DNA of 64,000 nt, from contig JAFGEW010000027.1 of NCBI GenBank assembly GCA_016931415.1, positions 4,550 through 68,549 on the forward strand, given 5' to 3'. The DNA is from Verrucomicrobiota bacterium. Lineage in GTDB: Bacteria; Auribacterota; JABMQX01; JAFGEW01. Under the pieces are notes generated by a model that worked only from the letters and a program-made list of their open reading frames with translations, made no database searches and was not told the DNA's origin. Each line of letters opens with the position of its first letter. The first letter of the stretch is position 1. Shown one piece after another: positions 33,857 to 59,889 of this stretch. A program made the position numbers and the translations under genes.

Positions 33857-36800
33857 CTAGAACTCCGACAGGACCCTGTAGTAGTATTCGACGAGCGCCT
33901 GGTACTCGGGCGGGCACGTCTCGTCCTTCGGCAGGAGGACCTTGCGTGCCTTGACCAGCACGTCGATGCGCTGAACGACCGTGTCGAGCGCCTGCTCGAG
34001 CTGCTCGGCGGCCGTCTCGATCCGCTCGGTGTCTTCCATGCCCGGATCGGTCGACGTGTGCTCGCGGCTCAGGATCTCGCCTGCCTTCTTCGCGTGTTCG
34101 CCCGCCGTCTTGGTCTCGGCGTTCTCGCTGAGGTTCTCACCTTCGGCGGTAAGCTGCTCGGCGAGGCTGTCCATCTCCTCGTCACTCGGCTCGCCGTTGC
34201 GCATCGACTCGAGCTGCTCGCGCGCCTCGGTGAGCGCCGTGGCCGATTCCCACAGCCGCTCGAGCTCCGACGTGGTCAGAATCTTGTACGCGCGCTCGAG
34301 ATCGGCCCGCGCCGCATCGATCCGCTCGAGGACGCGGTCCTGCTTCGCCATCGCATCGTCCGCACGCCCCTCGACGATGTCCGTGCGACTCCCCTCGACG
34401 GCCGACTTGAACTCCTCGGAGCCGAGCGTCTCCTTCGCCTGCTCGATGCGTTCGCGCGCCTCGCTGCCGGCCGTGCCGGCCTGTTCGACCACGGTCGCAA
34501 GCTTATCCTCGAGCGCCCCCGCATCGTCGCCGACCCACTTCTGCTGCAGGGCCGTCTTCTCGCGCTGGCCCTCGGTCGGATCGTCCTGCGTCAGCGCATC
34601 GGTGCGCTCGCGCACGCGCTTCTCGTCGCTCTTGAGCCGGTCGGCGTCGCCGATCGCCTGGGCAAGGTCCTCGAGCAGCGCCTGGCCGTAGAGCTTCTGC
34701 AGGTCCTCCAGCCCTTTGGCCAGCCGCTCCTCGGCAAGCTCGCCCGACGACGAGGCGTTTGCCAGGTTGCCCTCGCTCAGGTAGCGCTCGGCCGTCGCCA
34801 TCTCGCGCCGCGCCTCGCGGAAGTCCTTCGAATCCGGCTGGTACTTGTCGCCCGTGGCCAGATCGTCGAGCAGCGTCACGATCTCCTGTACGAGCGTACC
34901 GGCCGCGCCTTGCTTCTCGGAAAGCTGCGCGGCCTTTGTGCGCTTCTGGTCCGCGCTCGGCGTCGGGTCAGCCTCGATCTCCTCCTGCGCGCGGTTCAGG
35001 CCGCGCTGCTCGGCGACCGCCTCCTTCGCTTTGGCAATCGCTTCGAGGAGCTTCTCCTTCTCGGTCTTCGACAGCGAGCGCAGCGCCTCGGCCGCCAGGT
35101 TGGCCGCCTCGCGAAGGTCCTTGCGCGCCTCTTCCTGCTCGGGCTGCGCGCCGGAGATGTCGCCGCTGCCCAGCTTCTCGACGGCGCGCTCCATCGCGTC
35201 CTGGATGTCGCCCGACGCAAGCTGCTCGGCGACCTCCTTGACCTTCTCGCCCGCCTCCGGATGTTCATCACGCACCTTCGGCGCGATTGCCTCGGCGTCC
35301 TTGGCCAGATCATCGATCGTCCCCTTGAGGCTCTCCTGCTGCCGGCCCGTCTCGGCCAGATTCGAGACATCGCCCGCCGAATCCGCCGCGTCTTCCTTAA
35401 GCAACTCCTGGAAGCGGCTCGCCTCGTCGAGATCGCGCGCAAGCCGCTCAAGCGAGCGTTCGAGGTTGCGTTGCTCGGCGGCGGCGATCTCCTGCATCAC
35501 CGTGTCGAGTAGCCGCTCGGCGTCGACGCCCTCCTTGAAGCCTTCCTCGTAGCTCGGCTTGTCGAGCTGCTCGGCTGCCTCATCCATCTTCGCGCTTGCC
35601 TTCTCGGCGCTCGTCGGCGCCTTGCTGCTCAGGCTCGGATCCTTCTTCGCCATCTCGGCAAGCTCGCTGGCGGCGGCCTTCGTCTCGTCGGCGAGTTGAC
35701 GCTGGCGCTGCGGGAGACCCTGGCCCTGGCCCTCGCCTTCGCCCTTGCCCTCGCCCTCGCCCTGGCCCTCCTTCGACTGCGTGCTCTCGCTGCCGCTCTG
35801 CGGCTGGGTGCTGGGCTGCGCGCCGGGTTTCTGCTGTTCGGCCTGGCTCGCCATTTCCTCGTTCAGGTCGTGCTGGCGATCCTTGAGCTCCTCGATCTCG
35901 CTCTTCTGCTCCTCGAGCTTCTCGCGGCGCTCCTCCTCGCGCTCGCGGCCCATCTCGGCCGCCTTCTTCTGCGCCAGTTCGAGTGCTTGGCGGAGTTGCT
36001 CTTTCTTCTGCGCTTCGGACATGCTGCTCGAGTCCTGCGAGACGAGATGCTCAAGGTCGGCCAACGCCTTGTAGAGCGCCCCGAGCGCCTGCTGCTCTGG
36101 ATCCGTGGCGCCCTGTGTGTCGAGAGCGTGCAGCAACAGAACCGCGGCGTCCATAAAGTCAGCGGCACGCTCGATCGCCTGCACCTTGCCGATCTCGTTC
36201 TCCATCTCCAGCGCAAGCAGCTCGGCCTGGAGCGTCACGGCGAAGTCACGCGCAAGCAACGCATTGTCGAACTCGAGCGAGGCAATCGACATGATCCGCT
36301 CCTCGACCTCCGGCTCGATCGGATCCGTCAACGCGTTGAGCACACCGAACGTCTTCTGGATCACCTCCTTCTGAATCCGGATCAGCTCGCCAAGCACGTC
36401 GAGCTTCGGCGCCATCGGCAGTCCCGAACCCTCCTTGAGCCGGTAGCGTTCCTCGTACGGCATGATCTCGAGAAAGTAGACGGTCGATCGCCCCTGCTTG
36501 GGCGACGGCGCGATCGCGTCGTTGTCGATGGCGAAGACGTAGTAGCTCACGATGTCGTGCGGCTCGAGCGGGTAGTCCTCGAGCATGATCACCGCCTCAC
36601 CCTGCGCGTTGAGCGTGCGCGTGTCGAATTCCTGCACGATCTGGCGTTGCTCGCCCTCCATGCGCACGTTGAGCGCCAGGCCGATCTTCGAGATGCCGTA
36701 GTCGTCGGCCACCTCGAACTCGATCGGCACCTCGCTCGTCTTGGTCACCTTCATGTCTTGGCCCGGATGGATGATGCGCACGTCGGGCACGGTGTCTTTG

Positions 36801-37960
36801 AGGGCGGTGATCGCGTACTGCTTGCGCTGACGGTTCACGTGCCCGTACTCGTCCTCGATCACGATCTCGTACAGGCCGTCTTGCTCGACGGTGAATGCGC
36901 CGCTCGCGTTGCGTCCATTCTCGCTGATCGCGAGCGGCACCACCGTGCCGTCGGCGCGCACAAGCCGCGCGCGATCGAGCTTCGTGTTCGCATGCGCGTT
37001 GAGCGTCACCTTCGTCCCGCGCAACGCCACGATGTCGCCCTTCTTGATCGTCTGCTTCGGGAGCTGCGTATAGGCCGGGAAGAGGAGCTCGGCACTGATC
37101 GCGTCGACTTTCGGGTCGGGATAGACGATCACCTCGTAGGTGGGCGAGGTCGCGTCGCCCGCCTCGACGTAGTATGAGAACGGGCTCGAGAGCCGCGTGA
37201 ACTCGAACGAGGCCGACATGTGCCGCACCCGGCCCCGTTCCAGGTCGAGCTTCTCGCTGATCCACTCGCCCTTGTCGTTCTCGAAATGGATCGTCGCCTC
37301 GTCCGGGATGCGGCCCGAGAGCTCGGCGTAGATCGTCAGGTCGCTCAGCTCCTCGCACTCGACGCTGCCCGGCTGCACGTCGAGTTGCGTGAAGGTCCGC
37401 TCCTGCCATGGCGTGATCGCGCGCAGCAGCGCCGTCCGCCCGTTCGGCACCAGCCCGGCGAACAGCCCCAGCCCAACGACGAGCGCCACGAGCGCCACAA
37501 ACGGCCACCGTACCCGCGCCCAGCGCACGCTGCGTCGCAGCGGCAGCACGCTGATCCGCTCGCGCGTCTGCCCCGCAAGCGCCTCCTTCATCTCGTCGCT
37601 CGTGTAGTGCGTGCGTCCGTACGGATCGACCGTGTACTCGACCGTCGTCGCGAGTGTCGCCCGCAGATCGGGGAACGTCTCCTCGACATCCCACGAGAGC
37701 TTGAGGATGCCGAGCCACCGCAGGATCGGCACGACGACGAGCCCGGCGACAAGCACGAGCCCGCTCAGCACGAGCCCGGCGAACAACAGCGTGCGCAGCC
37801 ATTGCGCAACCGAGACGTGGAGGTCAACAGATGACAACACGAGCGAGCCGAGGCACACGACGGCCAGCACGACGGCCGCGCCGAACGTGACGTAGAACCA
37901 CCGCTTGCTCCCCTGGAGCCCGCGCAGCCTTCGCTCGATGTATCTCACGTCGTCGTTCAT
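33857..37960 (-). CDS. Giant coiled-coil membrane protein (1367 aa): two N-terminal TM helices, a central beta-rich region and a roughly 800-aa E/K/A/Q-rich coiled coil. It is the terminal gene of the Bat-like operon and may belong to the DUF4175 family.
   Basis: ATG (MNDDVRY) preceded by AGGAGAAAGG, 16 nt after the stop of the VWA protein gene. The upstream 200 codons of the ORF-track call are Ser/Arg/Cys-rich and unlikely to be coding. Confidence 0.65.
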   Translation of the reverse strand: MNDDVRYIERRLRGLQGSKRWFYVTFGAAVVLAVVCLGSLVLSSVDLHVSVAQWLRTLLFAGLVLSGLVLVAGLVVVPILRWLGILKLSWDVEETFPDLRATLATTVEYTVDPYGRTHYTSDEMKEALAGQTRERISVLPLRRSVRWARVRWPFVALVALVVGLGLFAGLVPNGRTALLRAITPWQERTFTQLDVQPGSVECEELSDLTIYAELSGRIPDEATIHFENDKGEWISEKLDLERGRVRHMSASFEFTRLSSPFSYYVEAGDATSPTYEVIVYPDPKVDAISAELLFPAYTQLPKQTIKKGDIVALRGTKVTLNAHANTKLDRARLVRADGTVVPLAISENGRNASGAFTVEQDGLYEIVIEDEYGHVNRQRKQYAITALKDTVPDVRIIHPGQDMKVTKTSEVPIEFEVADDYGISKIGLALNVRMEGEQRQIVQEFDTRTLNAQGEAVIMLEDYPLEPHDIVSYYVFAIDNDAIAPSPKQGRSTVYFLEIMPYEERYRLKEGSGLPMAPKLDVLGELIRIQKEVIQKTFGVLNALTDPIEPEVEERIMSIASLEFDNALLARDFAVTLQAELLALEMENEIGKVQAIERAADFMDAAVLLLHALDTQGATDPEQQALGALYKALADLEHLVSQDSSSMSEAQKKEQLRQALELAQKKAAEMGREREEERREKLEEQKSEIEELKDRQHDLNEEMASQAEQQKPGAQPSTQPQSGSESTQSKEGQGEGEGKGEGEGQGQGLPQRQRQLADETKAAASELAEMAKKDPSLSSKAPTSAEKASAKMDEAAEQLDKPSYEEGFKEGVDAERLLDTVMQEIAAAEQRNLERSLERLARDLDEASRFQELLKEDAADSAGDVSNLAETGRQQESLKGTIDDLAKDAEAIAPKVRDEHPEAGEKVKEVAEQLASGDIQDAMERAVEKLGSGDISGAQPEQEEARKDLREAANLAAEALRSLSKTEKEKLLEAIAKAKEAVAEQRGLNRAQEEIEADPTPSADQKRTKAAQLSEKQGAAGTLVQEIVTLLDDLATGDKYQPDSKDFREARREMATAERYLSEGNLANASSSGELAEERLAKGLEDLQKLYGQALLEDLAQAIGDADRLKSDEKRVRERTDALTQDDPTEGQREKTALQQKWVGDDAGALEDKLATVVEQAGTAGSEARERIEQAKETLGSEEFKSAVEGSRTDIVEGRADDAMAKQDRVLERIDAARADLERAYKILTTSELERLWESATALTEAREQLESMRNGEPSDEEMDSLAEQLTAEGENLSENAETKTAGEHAKKAGEILSREHTSTDPGMEDTERIETAAEQLEQALDTVVQRIDVLVKARKVLLPKDETCPPEYQALVEYYYRVLSEF
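35719..35771. repeat. In-frame hexanucleotide simple repeat (gccct[cg] x9) encoding GEGEGKGEGEGQGQG within the giant gene.
   Basis: Read directly from the sequence. Confidence 0.7.
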
Positions 37961-37976
37961 CGCATCCGCCTTTCTC

Positions 37977-40076
37977 CTAGACGTGCGTCCGGTTTGCCAG
38001 CCAGGTCTCGCTGAGCATGATGGCCAGTAGACCGATGAACAGGTACTGCCAGATCTCGTCCCGGTCGGCGGCATCCTCGTCGCCCAGCCCGGCGCGCGCC
38101 GGACCGTCGGTCTCGCCCGAGAGAATCTTGCGGAACTCGACCACGCTGCACGCGCGCAGATCCGACTCCACGGGATTGACGGTGATCGCGAGCGCGTTCG
38201 CCCGCCCGTCGTCGAACAGCAGCGTATACAAACCCGGTGCCTCCGTCTCGCGCAGCGCGCTGCGGTCCGCGAGCTCAAGCACGCGACCGCCCGGGTCGAA
38301 CACCTTGGCAAGCCCCTCGGGCAGCGCGACCGGCTCGCCGACGAAGTACGAGTGCTCGGCCGCCGCTGTATCGGTGACGCCACAGAGATAGCCGGCCATG
38401 CGGTGCAACAGCGGCAAATAGACCTTGCGCTTCGGCAGGTCGGTCCACGCCTCGTCGCCGCTCGTCGGCACAAGGAGCACGCGGCCGGCGCCGAACTGCT
38501 TCTCGACAAGGATCGGCCGCCCGTCGTTGAGAAACGCAAGAGCACGCGCCTTGCCTTCATCGAAGGCGCCGAGCCGGTGGATGCGCTGGAAGCGCGGCAC
38601 GCTCAGGTCGCCTGCGGCCGGGTCGAGGAACGGCTGAAAGACCGGGTGCTTCTCGTCAAAGCTCGTGATCTCCCAGAAGACCGACGCGTCTACGAGTGTG
38701 CCCGCCGCCGGCTCGAGCGCCGCCGGCAGCAACCCTTCGCCATCCTTGTAGAGGTCGCGGTTGTACTGGATGATGGAAGCTTTGTCGCCCGTGAAGACGA
38801 GCAGCCCGCCACCGTCGCGCACGAACCGCTCGAGCAGCGCCACGGTGCCCTCGTCGAAGAAATCGACGTTGGCCAGCACGACGGCGTCCTGCCCCTCGAG
38901 CGCCGGTGCGCTGAGCTCGCCGGGCGAGATGACCTGCGGCGCGAACATCGTCGTCCCCGGCTCCTCACCGAGCCGGAACGGGTTGAGCGCCACCTCGATG
39001 TAGTGCGTCTCGCGGAAGTACGCAATCTGCGACGGCGTCCCGTTGACGAGCAGCACGTGGAGTGCACGCCGTACATCGAGCACCGCGTAGGCTGCGTTGT
39101 CGGTCCCAAGGGCGTCATCGACGTCCAAGCTCACCCCGATCCCGTACAGCCCAGGGTCTGCAAACGTATGCTCGAATTCCACGGTCGTCGTCCCGCCTGG
39201 GCCGAGTGAGACGCGCTGCTTGCCGGCCACACCGCCGCCGGCCTCGAGCGTTGCCAGCACCGAGCAGGGCGCCGTGCCGTAGTTGCGCACCTGCGCCTGG
39301 ACCGTCACCGGTGCGCCGCTCTGGAGAAAGCGCCCGACGGCCTCGAGCTTGGTGACCGCCACGTTGGCGGGCGCGTGCGTCAGGTCGGGAATCTCGAGAA
39401 CCACGCCGCGTCTGAGTCGCACGTCGCCCAGCATGCCGAGGCCGCCCATCTGGAGGTCGCTGACGAGGAACATCGCCTTCTGCCTCGCGTGTCCTGCACG
39501 CGCGCCGTCCCAGTCGAACGCCGCCTGCGCCGCCGCGATCGCCGTACCGAAGTTCGTCGTGCGCGTCCCGGGCGTGATCCGTTCCACGGCGGCGAGCACG
39601 GCGCCGAAGTCGTCCGTCATCGCCTGCACAAGCTCGGGCGTCTCGTCAAAGGCAATGACAGCCGCCGTGTCGCCCGGCTTGAGCTCCTTGATCCTCTCGA
39701 TCGCGTAGGCGCGGCCGTGCTCGATCTTCGTGCCGCCCAGCTCACTCTCCGCCCCCATGCTGTAGGAGCGGTCGACGAGGAACACGACCTCCTGGGCGCC
39801 CGGCCCGATGCCAGCGAGCGCCTCGTCGCGAAGAAACGGCCGCGCAAACGCAAAGACAATCAGCCCGACGATGAGCACGCGCATCGCCAGGAGAATGATC
39901 TGCTTGATCCGGTTGCGGCGCGCGTTTTCGCGCGTGGCGATCTTGAGGAAACGCAGCGTGCTGAAGACGATCTTCTTGCGCCGCTTCTTGAACAGCAGAT
40001 GGATGATGATCGGCGCCGACACCGCACCGAGCACGTACAGAAACGGCGCGTTGAGATAGCTGACGGCGATCAGCAT
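37977..40076 (-). CDS. BatA-like protein: N-terminal TM / Bat_N region, von Willebrand factor A domain, C-terminal TM.
   Basis: VWA core VVFLVDRSYSMG (DxSxS MIDAS). N-terminus IIIHLLFKKRRKK typical of BatA. Confidence 0.75.
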   Translation of the reverse strand: MLIAVSYLNAPFLYVLGAVSAPIIIHLLFKKRRKKIVFSTLRFLKIATRENARRNRIKQIILLAMRVLIVGLIVFAFARPFLRDEALAGIGPGAQEVVFLVDRSYSMGAESELGGTKIEHGRAYAIERIKELKPGDTAAVIAFDETPELVQAMTDDFGAVLAAVERITPGTRTTNFGTAIAAAQAAFDWDGARAGHARQKAMFLVSDLQMGGLGMLGDVRLRRGVVLEIPDLTHAPANVAVTKLEAVGRFLQSGAPVTVQAQVRNYGTAPCSVLATLEAGGGVAGKQRVSLGPGGTTTVEFEHTFADPGLYGIGVSLDVDDALGTDNAAYAVLDVRRALHVLLVNGTPSQIAYFRETHYIEVALNPFRLGEEPGTTMFAPQVISPGELSAPALEGQDAVVLANVDFFDEGTVALLERFVRDGGGLLVFTGDKASIIQYNRDLYKDGEGLLPAALEPAAGTLVDASVFWEITSFDEKHPVFQPFLDPAAGDLSVPRFQRIHRLGAFDEGKARALAFLNDGRPILVEKQFGAGRVLLVPTSGDEAWTDLPKRKVYLPLLHRMAGYLCGVTDTAAAEHSYFVGEPVALPEGLAKVFDPGGRVLELADRSALRETEAPGLYTLLFDDGRANALAITVNPVESDLRACSVVEFRKILSGETDGPARAGLGDEDAADRDEIWQYLFIGLLAIMLSETWLANRTHV

Positions 40077-40800: not shown

Positions 40801-41826
40801 TCAGTGCGACTTGCGTCGCTTGATCAGATACTGCATGAGCGCGATCCCGAGCGACTCGTCGGTGACCACCGGCACGAAGTCGATCTGGCTGTTCGCGCAC
40901 TCCTTGGCGATCCAGCGCTGGTGCGCGCTGAACACTTCCTTGTACTTGTCCTGAACCGACGCCGGCAGCGTGGTGAGCCGCTCGCCCGTCTCGAGGTCCT
41001 CGAACAGGATCTGCCCCGTGAACGGCAACTCCACCTCGTCGCGCGTCAGCACCTGGAACACGAGCACCTCGTGCCCGGCGTGCCGGAAGTGCTTGAGCAC
41101 GTCCATGACCGCCTCCGGCTCGTCGAACAGGTCCGAGATGACGATGATCATGCCCCGCTTGCGAATCCGCTCGGCGAGCGCGTCGAGCCCCCGGGCGAAT
41201 CCCGTCTGTTCGGCCACCTTGACCCGGTCGAGGATCTTGAGCACGTGCAGCAAGTGGTCAAGACGCGCGCGGGGGGGTAAGTAGTGGCGGATCTCCGTGT
41301 CGAACGTCGCCACGCCCACGGCGTCCTTCTGCAGCATCATGAGATAGGCCAACGCGGCGCCAAGATACACGCCGTACTTGTACTTGCTCACCGCGTTGTC
41401 GCCGCCAGCCTGCGGCGCGTACCCCATCGAGGCCGAGGTGTCGAGCAGAATGTGGGCACGCAGGTTCGTCTCCTCGACGAACAGCTTGAGGAACAACTCG
41501 TCGGTACGCCCCCACAGCTTCCAGTCGATATAGCGGGTGTCGTCGCCCTTCATGTAGGGCCGGTACGAGCTGAACTCGACGCTGAAGCCGTGGAACGGGC
41601 TCTTGTGCAGTCCGACGAGGAACCCCTCGACAACGACCCGGGCCAGCAACTCGAGGTTCTGGATCCGGGCGATCACCTTCGGATCGAGGTACTGCAGCGC
41701 ATCGCGCACGCTTCCTCCTTCGCCGCTCGTGACGGGCGTGACGCCGCTAGCGCGCCATGCTCGTCGAAACCGAGTCGACCAGCCGCTCGATAATCGTCTC
41801 GGGTTGGACGTCCTCGCTCCGGGCAT
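40801..41826 (-). CDS. DUF58 family protein.
   Basis: [42 protein letters not shown]. The ORF overlaps the MoxR 3' end by about 80 nt, so the true start is probably an internal GTG or TTG. Confidence 0.7.
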
Positions 41827-42757
41827 GGAAGTTCAGAATGATCCGGTGATGGAGCACCGGCTCGGCCACCGCCCGCACGTCGTCGAACGTCACCGCGAGA
41901 TTGCCCTGCAGAATGGCGCGTGCCTTGGCGCCCAGCGTCAGGTACTGCGACGCGCGCGGGCTGGCGCCCCAACTGAGGTACTCCTTGACGAAATCAGGCG
42001 CCTCGGGCCGGTCGGGCCGCGTGGCCGAGACGAGCCGGACGGCGTACTCGACCACCTCGTCGGCAATCGGCACCTGCCGCACCAGCCCCTGCAAGCGCAC
42101 GATGTCCTGACCGGTCAGCACGCTGCGCAGCTCGGCCTTGTAGGTCGACGTGGTGCTCTGCACCACGGCAACTTCCTCGGCCACGGTCGGGTAGTGCACG
42201 CGCAAGTTGAACATGAACCGGTCGAGCTGCGCCTCCGGCAGCGGGTAGACGCCCTCGAGCTCGATCGGGTTCTGCGTCGCTATGACGAAAAACGGCTCCT
42301 CGAGCGGGTAGGTCTTGGTGCCGACGGTGACCTCGTGTTCCTCCATGACCTGGAGCATGGCCGCCTGCGTCTTGGGCGGCGTCCGGTTGATCTCGTCGGC
42401 GAGCACGATGTTGGCGAAGATCGGGCCTTTGATGAACTTCACCACGCGATGGCCCGTGCTCACGTCCTCCTCGATCACGTCGGTGCCCGTGATGTCCGAC
42501 GGCATCAGGTCCGGCGTGAACTGGATCCGGCTGAACTTGAGGTCGAGCACCTCGGAGATGGTCTTGACCATCATCGTCTTGGCGATGCCCGGCACGCCGA
42601 CCATCAGGGCGTGGCCGCGGCACAGGATCGTGATAAGCAGATGGTCGATCACATGGCGCTGCCCGACGATGACCTTGCCGATTTCGGCAGTCATCTCGGT
42701 GCGCGCGGCCGCGAGCCGCTCCACCGCCTCGCGGATGGCCCTGCCCGATTCCGTCAT
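41747..42757 (-). CDS. MoxR-family AAA+ ATPase.
   Basis: Walker A GVPGIAKT; Walker B LADEINR; VIATQNP. Confidence 0.9.
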   Translation of the reverse strand: MTESGRAIREAVERLAAARTEMTAEIGKVIVGQRHVIDHLLITILCRGHALMVGVPGIAKTMMVKTISEVLDLKFSRIQFTPDLMPSDITGTDVIEEDVSTGHRVVKFIKGPIFANIVLADEINRTPPKTQAAMLQVMEEHEVTVGTKTYPLEEPFFVIATQNPIELEGVYPLPEAQLDRFMFNLRVHYPTVAEEVAVVQSTTSTYKAELRSVLTGQDIVRLQGLVRQVPIADEVVEYAVRLVSATRPDRPEAPDFVKEYLSWGASPRASQYLTLGAKARAILQGNLAVTFDDVRAVAEPVLHHRIILNFHARSEDVQPETIIERLVDSVSTSMAR

Positions 42758-52681: not shown

Positions 52682-53083
52682 CTAGACAAGATCGGCCAAG
52701 GTCGTCGCCTCAAGCCGCTCAGACACGTAGTCACGGATCTCCGTAAGCACCCCGATCACCTTCGCCTCCTTCTCCAGCGGCGTGTGCGAGAAGAAGTACT
52801 CGCTCACCGACTCGGTCGGCGCCAGCGCACCATCCATCAGACGGATCACCTCGGCCAGCGTGATCGCCCCAGGCGACTTGGCCAAGCAGTACCCGCCCTC
52901 GGCGCCCCGCCTGGCCCGCACGTAGCCGCTACGCTTGAGGATGAACAGAAGCTGCTCCAGGTACTTCTTGGGAATGCCGTACTTGGTGCAGATCCCCTCC
53001 ATCTTGACCAACTCGTCGCCCTTGTGCCGCGCCAGATGAATGAGCGCCAGGATCGAGTATTCACTTTTAGTCGTGAGCTTCAT
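52682..53083 (-). CDS. Rrf2-family transcriptional regulator.
   Basis: MKLTTKSEYSILALIHLA...LEQLLFILKRSGYVRARRGAEGGYCLAK is the Rrf2 wHTH. Contains a single Cys. Confidence 0.8.
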   Translation of the reverse strand: MKLTTKSEYSILALIHLARHKGDELVKMEGICTKYGIPKKYLEQLLFILKRSGYVRARRGAEGGYCLAKSPGAITLAEVIRLMDGALAPTESVSEYFFSHTPLEKEAKVIGVLTEIRDYVSERLEATTLADLV

Positions 53084-53101
53084 TGTTCTATATGAGATCT
53101 C

Positions 53102-53119
53102 TGTAGTCTAGCGACTACA
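53102..53119. promoter_or_regulatory. Perfect 7-4-7 palindrome TGTAGTC-TAGC-GACTACA, about 20 nt upstream of the rrf2 start codon; candidate Rrf2 autoregulatory operator.
   Basis: Read from the sequence. Resembles the IscR-type AGTC...GACT half-sites. Confidence 0.45.
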
Positions 53120-53481
53120 TAGACAATGGCGGCCGGTATGTCAAGCTCTGAAGAGAAAAAACATGTGCTTAAGTCTGAGCCTCTCAACAACTGCCCAGCG
53201 GGACTGGGAACGAGCGAAAAGAAGCGGCCCTGTCCTGAGGGGGATGGACAGGGCCGAGGGAAAGAGGGGTCGTAAAAGGAGGTGGTCTGTCTCGTCTATC
53301 CTATCTGGAGCCGCTGAGGTGCTGCGTCTTCGCCAGGTAACCGCTTTCTCAGAGGAAACTCGAAGGCAGTCGGTCCACCTGCTGCGCTCTTCCTCCGCTT
53401 CCTTCGTGGCCTTTGTTAGTGTATACGTGTCCCGCCCCGGCTTTGTTCCCCGGTGTCCAGGACTGATTCAGCGAGGATCGC

Positions 53482-55704
53482 ATGCCGCAACGAGACATCG
53501 ACAGCTTGCTCCAGCGCAGAGACAAGTGGTATCTCGGCGGCGGGGACGCAGTGATCTGGGCGCCCCGCTTCCCCATGTGGCTGACGCGTCCCGGATTCTG
53601 GGACGAGGCCCATGTCTACAACGAGCCGTTCGGCCCCGTGTTCGCCGTCTCGCTCATCGACGAGGAAGTGCGTGCGGTGCCGCTGCGGGCGCGTCGTTAC
53701 CAGTGGCGCCCCAGCTCGTTCAGTGTCAACTATGTCGTCGTCGGCCGCGCCGCGCGCGGACTGCGCGTTCGCGAGCGCAAGTGTGTGCTCGACAACGACG
53801 TGCTCGCCTCCGACTTCATCCTGCGCAACGAGGGCCGCTCGCCGCGGCGCCTGCACGTCGTGCTGTGGACGTGCCACCCTTACGCCCCCGACCCGCTCGC
53901 GCACCACGTCCGCGATGTGCGCGTGAGTGACGAGGCGATCGAGTTCGTCAAGATGCTTCAGGTGGGGCCCGGCCCGAAGCGCGACGTCACCTGCGTGCTC
54001 GGCACGGACGCGCCGCGGACCTCGTACCTCGTTCAGCTCTCGCAGCCCACCGAGAACCATCCGCGCTGGGCGCTCACGCCGTTCCACGACCGCTTCGATG
54101 GCCACAGCCTCGGCGATGAGATCAACCTCGGCGGGGTACACCGCGACGGGCTCGTCTACGTCGGCCAGCATGCCGTTGTCGAGCTTGCCCCGGGCGAGAA
54201 ACGCGCCATCAAGCTCTGCGCAGCGGTGGCCGAATCGCCCGACCGCGCCCGCGCCGCGCTCAAGAACGCCATCGCCACGCCCGGCCTGCTTGCCGACCGC
54301 TCGCGCCGCGCCTGGGGCCGCTACTTCGCCAGCCTCCCGCAGTTCGAATGCGACGACGAGTATCTGACCCGCTACTACTGGTACCGCTGGTATGGGCTCC
54401 GGCTCCTCACCACGCACGGCAACAACGACATAACCCCGTGGCCCTCTCTCAACGAGGGCATCGAATACTTCCGAGGGCCGATCGCCTACAGCGCTCCCGG
54501 CCATATGCTCGAGACCCGCTGGATGGCCGATCCCGAACTCGCACGCGGCTGCCTGCGCAACTTCATCCACAACCAGCGCCGCGACGGTTCGTTCCGCGGC
54601 ACGCTGCGCGTCCACCTTGGCGTCGGCTGGGACTTCTTCCACACCAACTGGGGCCGCGCCGTCATGGCCGTCGATGAACTCCATCCCGACGACGAGTTCC
54701 TGCGCGAGGTCTACGGACCGCTCTGCCGATACGCCGAGTACTTCGAACAACGCCGCGATTCCGAGGGAAGCGACCTCTACGACGTCATTGATCAGTTCGA
54801 GACGGGTCAGGAGTACATGAGCCGCTACACGGCCGTCAATGCCGCCGCCGACACCGGCTTGGGCGAGCCGATGATCCGGCTCAAGGGCGTCGACGCCACG
54901 CTCTACGTCTACGAGCTCCAGCGCGCGCTCGCCCGGATCGCCCGCCGCCTCGGCCTCAACGACGACGCTGTACGCTGGGACGCCGATGCCGACGCCACCC
55001 GCGCCGCGATGCGCTCCCGCATGTGGGACCCCGAGCGCGAGATGTTCTCCGACATCGATCCGAGCACCAACAGGCGCACGGGCATCGAGGCCGCCGTCTG
55101 CTTCTATCCCTACTTCACCGACGTGGCCGAACCGAAGCATGTCGCCGGGCTCGAACGCCACTTGCTCGATCCCGACGAGTTCTGGACCCCGTTCCCGGTG
55201 GCGACGACGAGTCGCAAGGACCCCTCGTTCGATCCCGCCAGCCGCTGGCGCCGCAAGCGCCACCACTGCCCATGGAACGGCCGCGTCTGGCCGATGGTCA
55301 ACAGCCACATCGTCGACGCCCTCGCCGGGGCCGGCCGCCACGACCCCCGCCTGCGGGAGCGCGCCGCCGAGCTGCTGCGCAAGTTCGTCCGCATGATGTT
55401 CTTCTACCAGGACGTGTCACGCCCCAACTGCTTCGAGCACTACAACCCGCTCACGGGCGCCGCCTCGGTCTTCCGCGGCATCGACGACTACCAACACTCC
55501 TGGGTCGTTGATCTCATCATCCGCTACGTCGCCGGCTTCCGCCCCCAGCCCGACGGCACCTACGCGATCGAGCCGCTGCCCTTCGGCCTCAAACGCGTCG
55601 TGCTCGACAACCTCCACTACCGCGGTAAGCGCCTCAGCATCGCGGTTGTGGACGGTCGTGTCAGCGTTAAGGAGAGCCGCATCCGGGCCAAGCCGCGGCC
55701 CTGA
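53482..55704 (+). CDS. (alpha/alpha)6-barrel glycoside hydrolase, GH63-like (glucosidase-I / mannosylglycerate-hydrolase family).
   Basis: 740 aa with conserved acidic/aromatic blocks (DQFETGQEYMSRY, HHCPWNGRVWPMVN) typical of GH63/GH37/GH15 folds. Family assignment is from memory only. Confidence 0.5.
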   Translation: MPQRDIDSLLQRRDKWYLGGGDAVIWAPRFPMWLTRPGFWDEAHVYNEPFGPVFAVSLIDEEVRAVPLRARRYQWRPSSFSVNYVVVGRAARGLRVRERKCVLDNDVLASDFILRNEGRSPRRLHVVLWTCHPYAPDPLAHHVRDVRVSDEAIEFVKMLQVGPGPKRDVTCVLGTDAPRTSYLVQLSQPTENHPRWALTPFHDRFDGHSLGDEINLGGVHRDGLVYVGQHAVVELAPGEKRAIKLCAAVAESPDRARAALKNAIATPGLLADRSRRAWGRYFASLPQFECDDEYLTRYYWYRWYGLRLLTTHGNNDITPWPSLNEGIEYFRGPIAYSAPGHMLETRWMADPELARGCLRNFIHNQRRDGSFRGTLRVHLGVGWDFFHTNWGRAVMAVDELHPDDEFLREVYGPLCRYAEYFEQRRDSEGSDLYDVIDQFETGQEYMSRYTAVNAAADTGLGEPMIRLKGVDATLYVYELQRALARIARRLGLNDDAVRWDADADATRAAMRSRMWDPEREMFSDIDPSTNRRTGIEAAVCFYPYFTDVAEPKHVAGLERHLLDPDEFWTPFPVATTSRKDPSFDPASRWRRKRHHCPWNGRVWPMVNSHIVDALAGAGRHDPRLRERAAELLRKFVRMMFFYQDVSRPNCFEHYNPLTGAASVFRGIDDYQHSWVVDLIIRYVAGFRPQPDGTYAIEPLPFGLKRVVLDNLHYRGKRLSIAVVDGRVSVKESRIRAKPRP

Positions 55705-55903
55705 CAACGCCTTTCTCATCGACAGCACACCCCTTCGCCCCTGGAGCGCACCGCCCCATGCGATTTGTGGGTTGCATGCCCTGCCCATACTGGTGTATAA
55801 GCCCTATGGCCTCCCGCGGCCATTCGGGGCACGCCCCGGCCAGCGGGAATCGAGGCCCGGGAGACCATGCGACCACACCCAGATACGGGGAAGGGGTCTC
55901 ACC

Positions 55904-57091
55904 ATGGCCAAACCCGCACGCGCAATGGACGAAGCGATGAAGGGCGAAGCCGACGTCGCCCGCTCACAAGCGCATTTCTCAATCCTCGACGGCGAGGACT
56001 TCACCGCCTTCAAGGAGTGTCTCCAGAAAGACTTCTTCCAGCCCGACGAGCCGCTCGAGGACAACGCCACGCGCGACAGGTGCCTGGCCTTCATGCGCTC
56101 GAAGGACTTCCAGGTCCAGATCCCGATGTGGAACGAGGGCGACACGGTCGGTCCGATCGTCAAGTTCCTCATCGAGCAGCTCGACGGCCCCCAGCACCTC
56201 ATCTGCATGGACGCCAACAGCGACGACAACTCGGTCGAGGTCGTCGAGGCCCTCGGCGTGCGCACCATCCGCCAGGCCGACATGTTCGCCTGCGTCAAGT
56301 GGGACAGGTTCTGCGAGTTGCTCAACGACCCGGAGCCGCGCGGCCGCGGTATGACGCTCTACGCCATGACCATGTATCGCTTCCTGATCCAAGAGGGCGC
56401 CTTCCCGAGCTACCTTGCGTACAGCGACTCGGACATCCGCAACTTCGCCGAGTACGACCCGATCCCGTACCTCGTCTACCCGGTCGTGACCGAACCGAAG
56501 CGCCACTGGCTCTACACGAAGATCGCCAAGCCGGGACGCAACAACGAGTCCGTCATGGCCGGCCGCATCGCGGCGCAGTCCTGCAGCCCCGTCGGGCGGC
56601 GCATCTACGAGCGGCTCTCGCGCGACATGTGGATGATCTCAGGCGAGTACATGGTCGAGGGCAAGTACATGCGGACGCTCGTCCATACCACCCGCTCGTT
56701 TCTCGACGCGCTGACGGCCGTCTACTTCGCCGACCTCGACGTGGGCGGCGTCGGCGACGTCGCCATCGTGGGCAACGGCAACTCCCGCCTCGACAAGAAG
56801 AACGACAACATGAAGGAGCAGACCATCCTCTACTCGATCGCCGCCAACATCGTGGCGTTCGCCAACTACGGCCGGTACGTGAGCGAGCTCACGCTCGACG
56901 ACATTCGAAAGCTCAACACCGACTGGTTCAACCGGATCGAGATCTATCCCTACATCCCGGAGGCAAGCGAGCCGATGCACGCGGTCAAGATCATGAACGA
57001 CCGCTTCATCCCCAGCATCGAACAGCTCATCGCCGCCGACCTGGTCGACACCGCCAAGGTCGCCGAGATGAAGAAGAAGTACCGTGGCTAG
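55904..57091 (+). CDS. GT-A fold glycosyltransferase (395 aa).
   Basis: N-terminal Rossmann (QVQIPMWNEGDTVGPIV...LICMDANSDDNS) and DxD motif (YSDSDIR). ATG after GGGGAAGGGG. Confidence 0.5.
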   Translation: MAKPARAMDEAMKGEADVARSQAHFSILDGEDFTAFKECLQKDFFQPDEPLEDNATRDRCLAFMRSKDFQVQIPMWNEGDTVGPIVKFLIEQLDGPQHLICMDANSDDNSVEVVEALGVRTIRQADMFACVKWDRFCELLNDPEPRGRGMTLYAMTMYRFLIQEGAFPSYLAYSDSDIRNFAEYDPIPYLVYPVVTEPKRHWLYTKIAKPGRNNESVMAGRIAAQSCSPVGRRIYERLSRDMWMISGEYMVEGKYMRTLVHTTRSFLDALTAVYFADLDVGGVGDVAIVGNGNSRLDKKNDNMKEQTILYSIAANIVAFANYGRYVSELTLDDIRKLNTDWFNRIEIYPYIPEASEPMHAVKIMNDRFIPSIEQLIAADLVDTAKVAEMKKKYRG

Positions 57092-57177
57092 GCGGCCGCG
57101 GTGCGGCCCGCGTACCGCGCGGCCCGGCATGATCCAGGCTCTAGAATCTGTGTGCTTTCCGCGCGAATCCGTGTTTA

Positions 57178-58542
57178 ATGGCGTCCATGGATAGACGCAT
57201 CCTCATCATCGGCGGCGGGCCGACCGGCTGCGGCGCTGCCCGGCGCCTCGTTCAACGCGGGCACACCAACTGGCACCTTTACGAACGCGACTCCGTGCTC
57301 GGCGGACTCGCCGGCTCGAGGACCGACGAGCATGCCTTCACCTGGGACATCGGCGGCCACGTCATCTTCAGCCACTTCAAGGAGTTCGACGCGCTCGTCG
57401 ACGACATGCTCGGCAACGAGATGCTCTCGCACGAGCGCGAAAGCTGGATCCGCATCCTCGGCACATGGGTTCCCTACCCGTTCCAGAACAACATCCGCCA
57501 CCTGCCCGCCGAGGCGCTGCTCGAGTGCCTCATGGGCCTGATCGAGGTTCACGCCACGGAACGCTCGACGGCTGATTTCCATCAGTTCATCCGCACCACG
57601 TTCGGCCGCGGGATCGGGCGCTACTTCATGGAACCATACAACTTCAAGGTCTGGGCTACGCACCCGAGTGAGATGAGCGCCGCCTGGATCGCCGAGCGCG
57701 TCAGCGTCGTCGACATCGAGCGCGTGCTGCGAAACGTCATCACACAACACGACGACGTCGCCTGGGGACCGAACAACCTGTTCCGCTTCCCGCTGCGCGG
57801 CGGGACGGGCGAGATCTACCGCCGCTTCGGCCGGACCATCGAGGCGAAAACCACGCTCAACGCCGAGGTGGTCGAGATCGACACGGCCAGGAAGCGCGTC
57901 AAACTCGACAGCGGCGAGACCGACCCGTACGACGTGCTGATCTCGACCATGCCGCTCAACGCCCTCGCCGCGCGCCTCCACCCGAAACGCGGCGACCTCG
58001 TCGAGGCCGCCGCCAAGCTCCGGTCGAACAGCGCGCTCATCGTTGGGCTTGGCGTCGAACGCCCCGTGGACAACAAACGCTGCTGGATGTACTTCCCCGA
58101 GGATAACTGCCCCTTCTACCGCACGACGAATTTCTCGAACTACTCGTACAACAACGTTCCGTACGGCGACGTCGCGCGCTACCACTCGCTCATGTGCGAG
58201 ACGTCGTTCAGCGACATCAAACCCCGTCCGAGCGACATGGTCAGGGCGACACTCGACGGCGCGATCAGCGCCGGCCTGCTCACCGACAACGACCGTCCGC
58301 GCATCGTCGACGAGTTTCTCATCGAGGTGCCCCAGGCCTACCCGGTCCCGACCCGTGATCGCGACACGGCGCTCGCCACGCTGCAACCCGAGCTCGAGCA
58401 ACTCGGGATCATGAGCCGCGGCCGCTTCGGCGCCTGGCGCTACGAAATCGGCAACATGGACCACTCGTTCATGCAGGGCTGGCAGGCCATCGACCACGTC
58501 TTCGACGGCGCCGCCGAAGACGTCTTCCTCAAGTGGAAGTGA
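57178..58542 (+). CDS. glf: Eukaryotic-type UDP-galactopyranose mutase (FAD-dependent).
   Basis: GGGPTGCGAARRL; GGHVIFSHFKEFD; WVPYPFQNNI; PYNFKVWA; CWMYFPEDNCPFYRTTNFSNYS; SRGRFGAWRYEIGNMDHSFMQG. All match blocks remembered from fungal/kinetoplastid UGMs. Confidence 0.75.
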   Translation: MASMDRRILIIGGGPTGCGAARRLVQRGHTNWHLYERDSVLGGLAGSRTDEHAFTWDIGGHVIFSHFKEFDALVDDMLGNEMLSHERESWIRILGTWVPYPFQNNIRHLPAEALLECLMGLIEVHATERSTADFHQFIRTTFGRGIGRYFMEPYNFKVWATHPSEMSAAWIAERVSVVDIERVLRNVITQHDDVAWGPNNLFRFPLRGGTGEIYRRFGRTIEAKTTLNAEVVEIDTARKRVKLDSGETDPYDVLISTMPLNALAARLHPKRGDLVEAAAKLRSNSALIVGLGVERPVDNKRCWMYFPEDNCPFYRTTNFSNYSYNNVPYGDVARYHSLMCETSFSDIKPRPSDMVRATLDGAISAGLLTDNDRPRIVDEFLIEVPQAYPVPTRDRDTALATLQPELEQLGIMSRGRFGAWRYEIGNMDHSFMQGWQAIDHVFDGAAEDVFLKWK

Positions 58543-58638: not shown

Positions 58639-59889
58639 CTACTTGAGAGGCACCTCAACCCGGTAGACGTCTGTCCCGTCGACAGCCAGGTAATGCAGGC
58701 GATCGGCCGAATCGAAGATGACCCTGCCCGCGTTGAGAATGCGGTCATACGGGTCGCACTCGCGCCCGTTGATCACGACGAACTGGTCGCCGCCCAGAAC
58801 CGCCGTGTAGGCGAGCATCTCGCTGTCAGGGCTGAAGAGGAGCGTGCGCGGGTCAATCTGATCGTAGACCTTGCCCTCTTCGCCGTTCATCACGACGGAC
58901 TCGTTGCCGAATTTGCCGACCACGTAGGCGAGCTTCTTCCCGTTGGGGCTGAAAGCGAACACCGCCACAACGTGCTCGTAACGCTTGCCCTCGGCGCCGT
59001 TGTCGAGCACGTACCATTGGCCGCCCTCGAGGACGGCGTGCGCCAGCCGCGACCCGTCGGGGCTATAGAAGGGGCCTCCGACCCCGCCGTAACGCTTGCC
59101 TTCCACACCGTCGGCCACAATGAAGAACTGCCCGTTCGATCCTGCCACGAAGGCCATTTTCGCCCCGTCGGCACTGAACTCGGGTCCGCCGACCGCACTG
59201 TAGTGCTTGCCTTCCTCGCCGTTGATGACGAGGAACTGCTCGCCGCCTTCGACGGCTCCGTAGACGAAGGTCCTGCTATCCGGGCTGAACTTGAAGCCCG
59301 GGATGCCGTCATGCTGACGACCCTCCTCCCCATCGACCACGACGATCTGCTTATCGCCCACCTTGGCGCCGTGGGCGAGGCGTGCACCGTCGGGGCTGAA
59401 TGCCAAGCCGGCGACAATCCCGTCATAGGCCTTGCCCACCTGGCCATCGACGACAACGAACCACTTCCCGTCTTTCGAAGCCACATACGCGACTCGCGCG
59501 CCGTTCTCGCTGAACGTCAGCCCGCCGGCGGTATCGTAGGACTCACTCTCCTTGCTGTCGATGACGGCAAGCCACTTCCCTTCCTTCGACGCGAAGTAGC
59601 CCGCGCGTGCGCCATCTGCGCTGAGCACCACGCCGTCGCGACCAAGCTCGTCGTAGAGCGGCCCCGACGTCCCGTTGATCACAGCACGCTGCTTGCCGCC
59701 AAGGTCGGCCACACACGCGTACGCCGTCCCATCGGCACTGACGACGAGGCTCTCGGCAATCCACGACGGCTCGATCGTGGCGATGAGCTTCTCCGTCGTC
59801 CCAGCATCCTGATCGGCCGCCGATGCGGCCACGCTCAGGCAGATCAGCACAAGGGAAACGCAGTACAAAGAGGCATCCCGGAACACCAT
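58639..59889 (-). CDS. Secreted tandem-repeat protein (about 13 repeats of a roughly 28-aa unit, beta-propeller-like).
   Basis: Signal peptide. Repeating units of the form xVVxDGxEGKxYDxxxxxxFSPDGxRxAY. Confidence 0.55.
   Translation of the reverse strand: MVFRDASLYCVSLVLICLSVAASAADQDAGTTEKLIATIEPSWIAESLVVSADGTAYACVADLGGKQRAVINGTSGPLYDELGRDGVVLSADGARAGYFASKEGKWLAVIDSKESESYDTAGGLTFSENGARVAYVASKDGKWFVVVDGQVGKAYDGIVAGLAFSPDGARLAHGAKVGDKQIVVVDGEEGRQHDGIPGFKFSPDSRTFVYGAVEGGEQFLVINGEEGKHYSAVGGPEFSADGAKMAFVAGSNGQFFIVADGVEGKRYGGVGGPFYSPDGSRLAHAVLEGGQWYVLDNGAEGKRYEHVVAVFAFSPNGKKLAYVVGKFGNESVVMNGEEGKVYDQIDPRTLLFSPDSEMLAYTAVLGGDQFVVINGRECDPYDRILNAGRVIFDSADRLHYLAVDGTDVYRVEVPLK

Follow-up and report, generated by a model that had tools for sequence, protein, structure and literature searches.

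What does a UDP-galactopyranose mutase (UGM) of the class associated with eukaryotes do in a bacterium, and where did it come from? The question is raised by a 64-kb stretch of contig JAFGEW010000027.1 (hereafter the window, within which all coordinates are numbered). Here, three co-directional genes on the plus strand, at 53482-58542, encode in order a glycoside hydrolase (GH), a glycosyltransferase (GT) and a flavin adenine dinucleotide (FAD) enzyme. A first-pass annotation, made from the letters alone, had described three co-directional open reading frames (ORFs), and we found them where it had placed them:

53482-55704, plus strand: GH, 740 aa, cytoplasmic six-hairpin glycoside hydrolase.
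55904-57091, plus strand: GT, 395 aa, soluble GT-A glycosyltransferase of a rare GT81-like family.
57178-58542, plus strand: UGM, 454-aa FAD enzyme, predicted class-II ('eukaryotic-type') UDP-galactopyranose mutase.

Homology and active-site conservation predict with high confidence that the flavoenzyme has UGM activity, and we lean towards reading the trio as a native, self-contained unit of a Verrucomicrobiota bacterium for cytoplasmic galactofuranose (Galf) chemistry. UGM is a known kind of enzyme; the unusual part is its rare GT81-like partner and the trio, a new form of Galf-biosynthesis unit. NCBI calls the UGM from an alternative start at 57187, which gives 451 aa. The GT start was set at 55904 because all homologues begin there; a longer ORF with a TTG start at 55508 overlaps GH and is used by no GT homologue.

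The identity of the flavoenzyme follows from its comparison with solved structures. Against the PDB, it matched UGM from Trypanosoma cruzi (TcUGM; 4dsg, E 5.6e-118, residues 6-449) and from Aspergillus fumigatus (AfUGM; 3uka/3ute, E ~1e-102, residues 8-447), a full-length homology, and beyond the eukaryotic UGMs there was no PDB match better than 8e-4. A three-way MAFFT alignment gave 47% identity to TcUGM and 43% to AfUGM, with 50% between the latter two; identities among eukaryotic UGMs are reported as 47-60% (PMC3624792). At ~450 aa, the window protein is shorter than the 480-510 aa of its eukaryotic counterparts because their longer insertions are absent, as seen in the alignment gaps. The four sequence blocks that had led the first-pass annotation to a eukaryotic-type enzyme (GGHVIFSHFKEFD, WVPYPFQNNI, YFPEDNCPFYRTTNFSNYS and GRFGAWRYEIGNMDHSFMQG) are all present in the translation and align column for column with the solved eukaryotic UGMs. 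The FAD-binding Rossmann GxGxxG motif is IIGGGPTGCGAA, at residues 9-20 (Pfam NAD_binding_8, 2e-9).

We then compared the active sites, using the 20 AfUGM residues that have been tabulated against four bacterial Glf enzymes, a set that takes in the catalytic Arg327, Arg182, the His63 loop, Trp315 and Tyr317 (PMC3322874). In the MAFFT alignment 19 of the 20 are kept in the window UGM. Those identical to both AfUGM and TcUGM are H61, F64, R87, F150, M151, Y154, N155, W159, R174, P198, N199, W303, Y305, R315, E341, Y388, R416, Y422 and N426, and they include every position that distinguishes the eukaryotic class from Glf (F64, R87, N155, P198, N199, W303, Y305, N426). The GGH histidine loop is present, and R315 corresponds to the catalytic R327 of AfUGM, whose replacement by Ala inactivates that enzyme (PMC3322874). 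The sole difference is M427 (codon ~58456-58458), which stands in place of AfUGM Gln458. In a sample of 16 bacterial class-II homologues all 20 positions are invariant, and all 16 have Met at the Gln458 equivalent, as Glf enzymes also do. In AfUGM, Gln458 is close enough to the redox-sensitive loop III for hydrogen bonding (PMC3322874), and loop-flipping in bacterial class-II UGMs may thus differ from that of the eukaryotic enzymes. Besides M427, the window UGM is unlike its eukaryotic counterparts in being bacterial and cytoplasmic and in lying beside a GT81-like transferase.

The enzyme had also been described as unlike the shorter bacterial Glf, and this distinction held. Pfam finds only Amino_oxidase and NAD_binding_8 in the protein and no GLF domain (PF03275), no Glf structure in the PDB matches it at E<=1e-3, and BLASTP against Glf of E. 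coli K-12 returns E 0.11 over the Rossmann motif only. Glf enzymes (E. coli K-12 b2036, Klebsiella, Mycobacterium, Deinococcus) catalyse the same reaction and share the overall three-domain flavoenzyme fold (PMC3322874). Similarity to them is nevertheless limited to the Rossmann motif: Glf has 367 aa against 454 aa for the window UGM, and several active-site positions differ in residue. A search of the window for a second mutase of the Glf type found none.

What the mutase supplies is suggested by gene linkage. In all 14 loci in which DNA downstream of a GT of this family is visible (the window, L004/5, L011/12, L013/14, L015/16, L017, L104, L105, L106, L107, L109, L111, L112 and L113), a class-II UGM is the next gene downstream, on the same strand and 60-160 bp away. 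Nine of these 14 UGM-linked GTs are only 50-55% identical to that of the window. The association runs in one direction: neither the GT family nor the GH family lies beside any of 80 other bacterial UGMs (0/80 loci for each), and a remote GT relative (P0267, E 8e-51) has no UGM beside it. Because this linkage is strict and one-way, we consider it likely that the GT uses UDP-Galf, and the linkage is our main argument for this. The full order GH-GT-UGM occurs in six independent loci (the window, L004, L011, L104, L105 and L106), all of whose GTs are at least 77% identical to that of the window. In classical Galf clusters, such as glf-wbbI of E. coli O16, the UGM likewise adjoins a transferase that consumes UDP-Galf. 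Those clusters use a Glf-type UGM and inverting transferases and form part of large loci for O-antigen or cell wall that also encode flippases and polymerases, whereas the window unit stands alone among housekeeping genes.

Outside the trio clade we found no recurring third partner of the GT-UGM pair. A GHMP kinase encoded upstream of the distant pairs was considered as a pathway member and rejected, as it is the housekeeping enzyme IspE (209-235 bits, above the cut-off). DUF6259 and other proteins encoded downstream of these pairs returned no family or PDB information.

The GT belongs to a small and distinctive family. A search of 5.8 billion proteins yielded 26 clusters of homologues at 90% identity, and in a library clustered at 50% identity the family forms one cluster, after which the score drops from 704 to 190 bits. 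Mean column identity in the family is 68%, and the motifs IPxWNExDT, MDAxSxD, DSDI (the DxD motif), KPGRNNE, DMWMISGEY (SGEY) and RLDKKND are invariant; the DSD itself, at residues 175-177, is the same in 25 sequences. A weak Pfam match to GT2, the first three of these motifs and an AlphaFold2 (AF2) model with a Rossmann-like beta/alpha core (pLDDT 86.8, pTM 0.87) all bear out the GT-A fold that had been assigned from the sequence.

In comparisons with known structures, this fold led to synthases of small glycosides. A family profile run against the PDB placed Rubrobacter mannosyl-3-phosphoglycerate synthase (MpgS; 3f1y) and mycobacterial glucosyl-3-phosphoglycerate synthases (GpgS) on top (1.5e-4 to 1e-3), and a profile of the wider GT family also matches the C-terminal GE[FY]...PF.tGY.vE region of GT81. 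With the AF2 model as query, Foldseek ranks 1-41 are all GpgS or MpgS enzymes of GT81 (E 4e-14 to 1e-11, TM ~0.7 on the target) and the next nine are MpgS enzymes of GT55. GT81 and GT55 are retaining families. From these matches, the GT is best described as a distant GT81-like GT-A enzyme that is neither GpgS nor MpgS; the corresponding family model TIGR02460 gave no match. The likeness to the GpgS/MpgS-GgH/MgH systems of mycobacteria, Rubrobacter and Thermus (GT81 synthases with GH63 hydrolases) extends to the pairing of a retaining-type GT-A carrying DSD with a cytoplasmic (alpha/alpha)6 hydrolase, although identity is only 15-18%. The donor implied by the linkage is UDP-Galf, in contrast to the UDP-Glc or GDP-Man of the glycerate synthases.

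The hydrolase is less easily placed. Its best Pfam match by far is MGH1-like_GH (PF22422; 1.5e-46, 160 bits against a cut-off of 27), a model that again recalls the GgH/MgH systems. Weaker matches are to Trehalase (5e-9), a rhamnosidase six-hairpin domain and Glyco_hydro_63 (PF03200; 2e-6, 27.1 bits against a cut-off of 22.4, residues 541-662 only). In the AF2 model (pLDDT 89.5), an (alpha/alpha)6 barrel is flanked by one beta-sandwich on its N-terminal and another on its C-terminal side. Searched against the PDB, a family profile ranks GH142 BT_1020 first (1e-19), then GH121 HypBA2 (2e-14), GH63 YgjK (5e-12) and GH37 trehalases (~1e-4). Foldseek ranks HypBA2 first (6m5a, 1.4e-26, TM 0.70), then YgjK (2e-24, TM 0.64), BT_1020 (5mqr, 2e-22) and GH94 phosphorylases (1e-19). 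The two orders thus differ, by small margins, and the GH is roughly equidistant from GH121, GH142 and GH63, probably forming a ~750-aa family of its own. The earlier description of a GH63-like (alpha/alpha)6 hydrolase therefore stands at clan level, where Pfam and the AF2 model back the fold; below that level, GH142 and GH121 come ahead of GH63 in the profile search.

Scores against functional models are low: 31.7 bits against a cut-off of 550 for glucosylglycerate hydrolase, and 39.6 against 625 for the YgjK-type alpha-glucosidase. The alignment with YgjK covers only 126 residues and leaves the general acid outside, and that with BT_1020 is offset by 5-6 residues; both are too short or ambiguous to place the catalytic residues of the GH with confidence. 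The glutamate at subsite -1 is Glu383 in HypBA2 and Glu694 in BT_1020 (PMC7263609). In the window GH, the family-invariant E325 aligns with E352 of the 6m5a chain, in 'SIEGVLGY'; this residue would correspond to the essential Glu383 of HypBA2, provided that the crystallised construct is numbered with an offset of 31. The GH shares the three-domain architecture of HypBA2 and BT_1020, which are its best profile matches, with HypBA2 also the top Foldseek match. The identity is 15-16%, however, YgjK is almost as near, and HypBA2 and BT_1020 are extracellular or periplasmic degraders of plant glycans, whereas the window GH is cytoplasmic.

Together these comparisons allow us to propose a pathway. 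In the first step, as homology and active-site conservation predict, the reduced FAD of UGM would attack C1 of UDP-alpha-D-galactopyranose, the ring would contract and UDP-alpha-D-Galf would be released. In the second, given the strict linkage, the solubility of the GT and its GT81-like fold, the GT would galactofuranosylate a small soluble acceptor in the cytoplasm, the present lead being a glycerate- or phosphoglycerate-type organic acid. In the third and weakest step, the GH would hydrolyse the product of the GT, or a related alpha-linked (1,2-cis) glycoside, for turnover, mirroring the synthase/hydrolase pairs (GgH, MgH) of glucosylglycerate and mannosylglycerate metabolism. That the acceptor is a small molecule we put at just short of an even chance, and that the GH acts on the GT product is more doubtful. 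None of the three proteins has a signal peptide or hydrophobic segment (highest Kyte-Doolittle 19-mer <=1.27); by contrast, the beta-propeller protein encoded next to the UGM (58639-59889) has a clear signal peptide. The window encodes no flippase, polymerase or further GT beyond the trio, which supports a self-contained pathway; the rest of it encodes sensor kinases, a TonB receptor, GlmS, a MoxR/DUF58 cluster, a c-di-AMP cyclase and chaperonins.

Several findings weigh against this proposal. The intergenic gaps, 200 bp between GH and GT and 87 bp between GT and UGM, do not prove an operon. The best NCBIfam model for the GT, GpgS (NF010496), scores 31.4 bits, far under its cut-off of 262. GGRVTE is the phosphoglycerate-binding loop of GT81; HMMER aligns this loop of MpgS with AGR(221)IAA of the GT (AGR-I/C-A-A in the family), where the Arg is kept and the Thr and Glu are not, and the invariant KPGRNNE lies before it. 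With the loop not conserved, a phosphoglycerate acceptor is an unproven candidate. No phosphatase gene lies beside the GT-UGM pair in any locus, another difference from the GpgS/MpgS systems. The glycosyl-glycerate-type solute metabolism that the first-pass annotation had suggested is nevertheless a fair lead in so far as the nearest neighbours of the GT, by sequence and by structure, are all glycosyl-3-phosphoglycerate synthases and the three proteins are soluble.

The genomic distribution also weighs against the proposal. More distant GT-UGM pairs have no GH, which joined the pair only in the clade of the window. The GH has 575 full-length homologues; those that are 45-49% identical, from other phyla, lie in ATP-binding cassette (ABC) sugar-import loci beside other six-hairpin GHs, and the general role of the family thus looks catabolic, in the breakdown of glycosides in the cytoplasm. 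In two sister lineages the same site holds a UGM but neither GH nor GT, and the UGM must therefore also have, or have had, another client. Finally, most bacterial class-II UGMs sit in an envelope-glycan context. At 80 bacterial class-II UGM loci the commonest neighbours are a GT2 (19 loci, mostly directly downstream) and a sulfotransferase (15), followed by a GH1-like protein (9), a GT9 (8) and a Wzx-type flippase (8).

These last points are the substance of the strongest alternative, in which UGM feeds UDP-Galf to lipopolysaccharide, exopolysaccharide or glycoprotein synthesis, the GT is an ordinary Galf transferase with a lipid-linked, polysaccharide or protein acceptor, and the GH is an unrelated catabolic neighbour. 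Such an arrangement would account for the neighbours of the 80 loci, the solo relatives, the GH homologues in sugar-import loci and the weak GT2 match of the GT. However, the GT has no membrane segment, and the 50 structures that match it best are without exception soluble synthases of small molecules (GT81, GT55) rather than GT2 transferases that act on polymers or lipids. The window also lacks a flippase, polymerase or further glycan GT, and the order GH-GT-UGM is kept in six loci. We therefore regard an envelope-glycan role as rather unlikely here, and retain the self-contained cytoplasmic unit as the preferred reading.

The same 80 loci gave two side observations. A sulfotransferase lies within four genes of the UGM in 15 of the 80, in Acidobacteriota within L027-L095 (for example L039 5390-7195 and L054 12145-13041), as does a bifunctional ATP-sulfurylase/APS-kinase in six loci, which hints at sulfated Galf-containing glycans in Acidobacteriota. 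In nine Planctomycetota loci (L043-L096, for example L050 3184-4530) the gene that directly precedes the UGM, in the same orientation, encodes a GH1-like protein of 448 aa (Pfam E 1.6e-15), another recurrent pairing of UGM and glycosidase.

Given the resemblance of the mutase to eukaryotic enzymes, we evaluated its origin from its distribution, phylogeny and genomic setting. The search of 5.8 billion proteins returned at least 7,771 UGM homologues at E<=1e-10. The best 120 matches are all from bacterial metagenome-assembled genomes or metagenomes, at 50-100% identity. When prokaryotic species were scanned, each represented by a single genome, class-II UGM occurred in at least 569 bacterial species genomes from more than ten phyla. 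The best 80 of these genomes belong to Verrucomicrobiota, Desulfobacterota, Acidobacteriota, Planctomycetota, Actinomycetota, Omnitrophota, Nitrospinota, Armatimonadota, Chloroflexota, Dormibacterota, Eremiobacterota and Bacillota. Cultured carriers among the Desulfobacterota are Geomonas limicola, Geothermobacter hydrogeniphilus and Salidesulfovibrio brasiliensis.

We built a neighbour-joining tree from 88 bacterial sequences and the two eukaryotic ones, which were rebuilt from PDB alignments; it is distance-based and unrooted, with Glf too distant to serve as an outgroup. The window UGM clusters with relatives from Verrucomicrobiota (bootstrap 200/200), and the UGMs of the trio loci form a clade (175/200). 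TcUGM and AfUGM form a clade of their own (100/100), attached elsewhere at an unsupported position (38%), and are not sister to the window UGM. The phylogeny that had been proposed as a check thus places the enzyme among bacterial class-II UGMs; an unrooted neighbour-joining tree with two eukaryotes cannot show which domain had UGM first.

The genomic setting agrees with a native gene. G+C content is 64-68% throughout the window, and third-codon-position G+C (GC3) is 0.89 for GH, 0.93 for GT and 0.90 for UGM, against 0.82-0.92 in neighbouring genes. Relatives with a 72-80% identical UGM share the gene order GroES-GroEL-RpoZ-Zn-ribbon-HtrA-TauE-Rrf2 / UGM / propeller-ThiC-DsbD. In these terms the window UGM appears as an ordinary, vertically inherited member of a bacterial family, and it was almost certainly not acquired from a eukaryote. 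Transfer of the gene from a eukaryote into the window bacterium, the eukaryote-like origin that had first been suggested, has in its favour the high similarity to eukaryotic UGMs and the treatment of the class as 'eukaryotic' in the literature (PMC3624792). It is nonetheless very improbable: hundreds of bacterial homologues are nearer (50-82% identity) than any eukaryotic one (43-47%), the class is spread over many bacterial phyla, GC3 is native and synteny conserved, the T. cruzi and A. fumigatus pair branches apart from the window clade, and bacterial members uniformly have Met at the Gln458 position, as in Glf.

The annotations of these homologues obscure the family. Names among the best 120 matches are 'FAD-dependent oxidoreductase', 'amine oxidase' and 'protoporphyrinogen oxidase', and by source the bacterial class-II homologues are labelled 'protoporphyrinogen oxidase' (JGI) or 'FAD-dependent oxidoreductase' and 'NAD(P)-binding protein' (NCBI). 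These labels, and the restriction of the Pfam matches to Amino_oxidase and NAD_binding_8, would suit another enzyme of the amine-oxidase fold, such as protoporphyrinogen oxidase or another oxidoreductase, but this is hardly credible in view of the full-length alignment to solved UGMs (E 1e-118), the retention of 19 of 20 substrate- and flavin-site residues, catalytic Arg315 and the GGH loop among them, and a protoporphyrinogen oxidase model score of 21 bits against a cut-off of 517. The labelling is instead a systematic annotation gap for galactofuranose metabolism.

This gap has consequences for how the enzyme is viewed. UGMs are customarily sorted into a 'prokaryotic' and a 'eukaryotic' class, the second of which is regarded as a drug target in eukaryotic pathogens, yet our data show this second class to be a large bacterial family, most of it unannotated, with an invariant active site. 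Since its members are systematically mislabelled, galactofuranose is probably under-predicted in environmental bacteria. In the full-text literature that we searched, we found no account of bacterial members of this class; our view of them as under-appreciated draws on the homologue annotations and on two reviews (PMC3624792, PMC5421137).

With its strict linkage to UGM, the GT81-like enzyme is a concrete candidate for a novel type of Galf transferase, and GT and GH together might give access to the synthesis and breakdown of alpha-linked galactofuranosides. At its furthest, the analogy would make the GT the first retaining galactofuranosyltransferase, placing alpha-D-Galf on a small acid (for example in a solute of the galactofuranosyl-glycerate type), and the GH the first alpha-D-galactofuranosidase; we think this improbable. 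As far as we know, every Galf transferase characterised so far is an inverting enzyme with a beta-Galf product. The nearest characterised families of the GH all cleave alpha-pyranosides or beta-L-arabinofuranosides, and the latter, the substrates of GH121 and GH142, are 1,2-cis stereo-analogues of alpha-D-Galf. A GT related to the retaining families GT81 and GT55, an alpha-linked donor and the specificity of GH121 and GH142 together make the trio consistent with the synthesis and turnover of alpha-D-Galf glycosides. UDP-Galf is alpha-linked, and according to a 2025 review it is not yet known how alpha-D-Galf is synthesised and metabolised, and one attempt to find an alpha-Galf-ase was unsuccessful (PMC12290620). 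The proposal is speculative, as an analogy at family level in which GH63 is nearly as close to the GH.

The surroundings of the trio bear on its assembly and expression:

52682-53083, minus strand: Rrf2 regulator, the divergent gene flanking the trio on the GH side.
53084-53481, no strand assigned: upstream intergenic region, with conserved blocks in a five-way alignment with relatives.
58639-59889, minus strand: secreted beta-propeller gene, the convergent gene flanking the trio on the UGM side.

A region homologous to 53084-53481 precedes the GH in the trio genomes and precedes the UGM directly in genomes without GH-GT. This implies that the GH-GT pair separates the UGM from the region that was ancestrally upstream of it, a position that would fit co-transcription of the trio. 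A scan for promoters and terminators found no terminator-like site on the plus strand between GH, GT and UGM; its single terminator-like site is on the minus strand, inside the GT ORF.

The intergenic region also contains elements on the minus strand. A GC-rich 10-bp hairpin at 53226-53255 (GGCCCTGTCC...GGACAGGGCC) is kept in all five aligned relatives, with 98% of cells paired and compensatory double changes at three of its ten pairs. A T-run towards ~53215 comes after it on the minus strand, which gives it the look of an intrinsic terminator. No annotated minus-strand gene ends at this position, a short distance upstream of the Rrf2 promoter. Further along, at 53422-53450, the minus strand carries GGGAAC-N17-CGTATA, kept with fixed spacing in all five relatives. 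This element resembles a promoter for an extracytoplasmic-function (ECF) sigma factor; the SigW promoter of Bacillus subtilis is TGAAAC-N16-CGTATA. Promoter and hairpin together predict a minus-strand transcript of ~200 nt (~53215-53415), which could be a small RNA or a leader or attenuator of the Rrf2-TauE genes. The predicted transcript has no Rfam match and its region no conserved small ORF, and the fold of the whole region is not significant (z -0.28). Closer to Rrf2, about 20 nt before its start, a minus-strand promoter, TTGACA-N17-TATGTA, is overlapped by a perfect palindrome, TGTAGTC-TAGC-GACTACA (53102-53119, within a site at 53102-53145). The palindrome appears only loosely conserved in the relatives and is probably an autoregulatory operator of Rrf2, similar to those of CymR or IscR.

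On the other side of the trio, the 416-aa product of the propeller gene is PD40/WD40-like, with a sub-threshold match to the TmcD family (99.7 bits against 440); genomes with the trio and those with the UGM alone both retain its gene as the convergent neighbour of the UGM. Elsewhere in the window, an AT skew of -0.42 at 34000-36000 falls inside the ORF at 33857-38560 (minus strand), which encodes a 1567-aa DUF4175 protein and shares its region with MoxR (41747-42757) and DUF58/VWA (40801-41826) genes; the skew is ordinary, being due to a Glu/Lys/Ala-rich low-complexity stretch in the DUF4175 protein.

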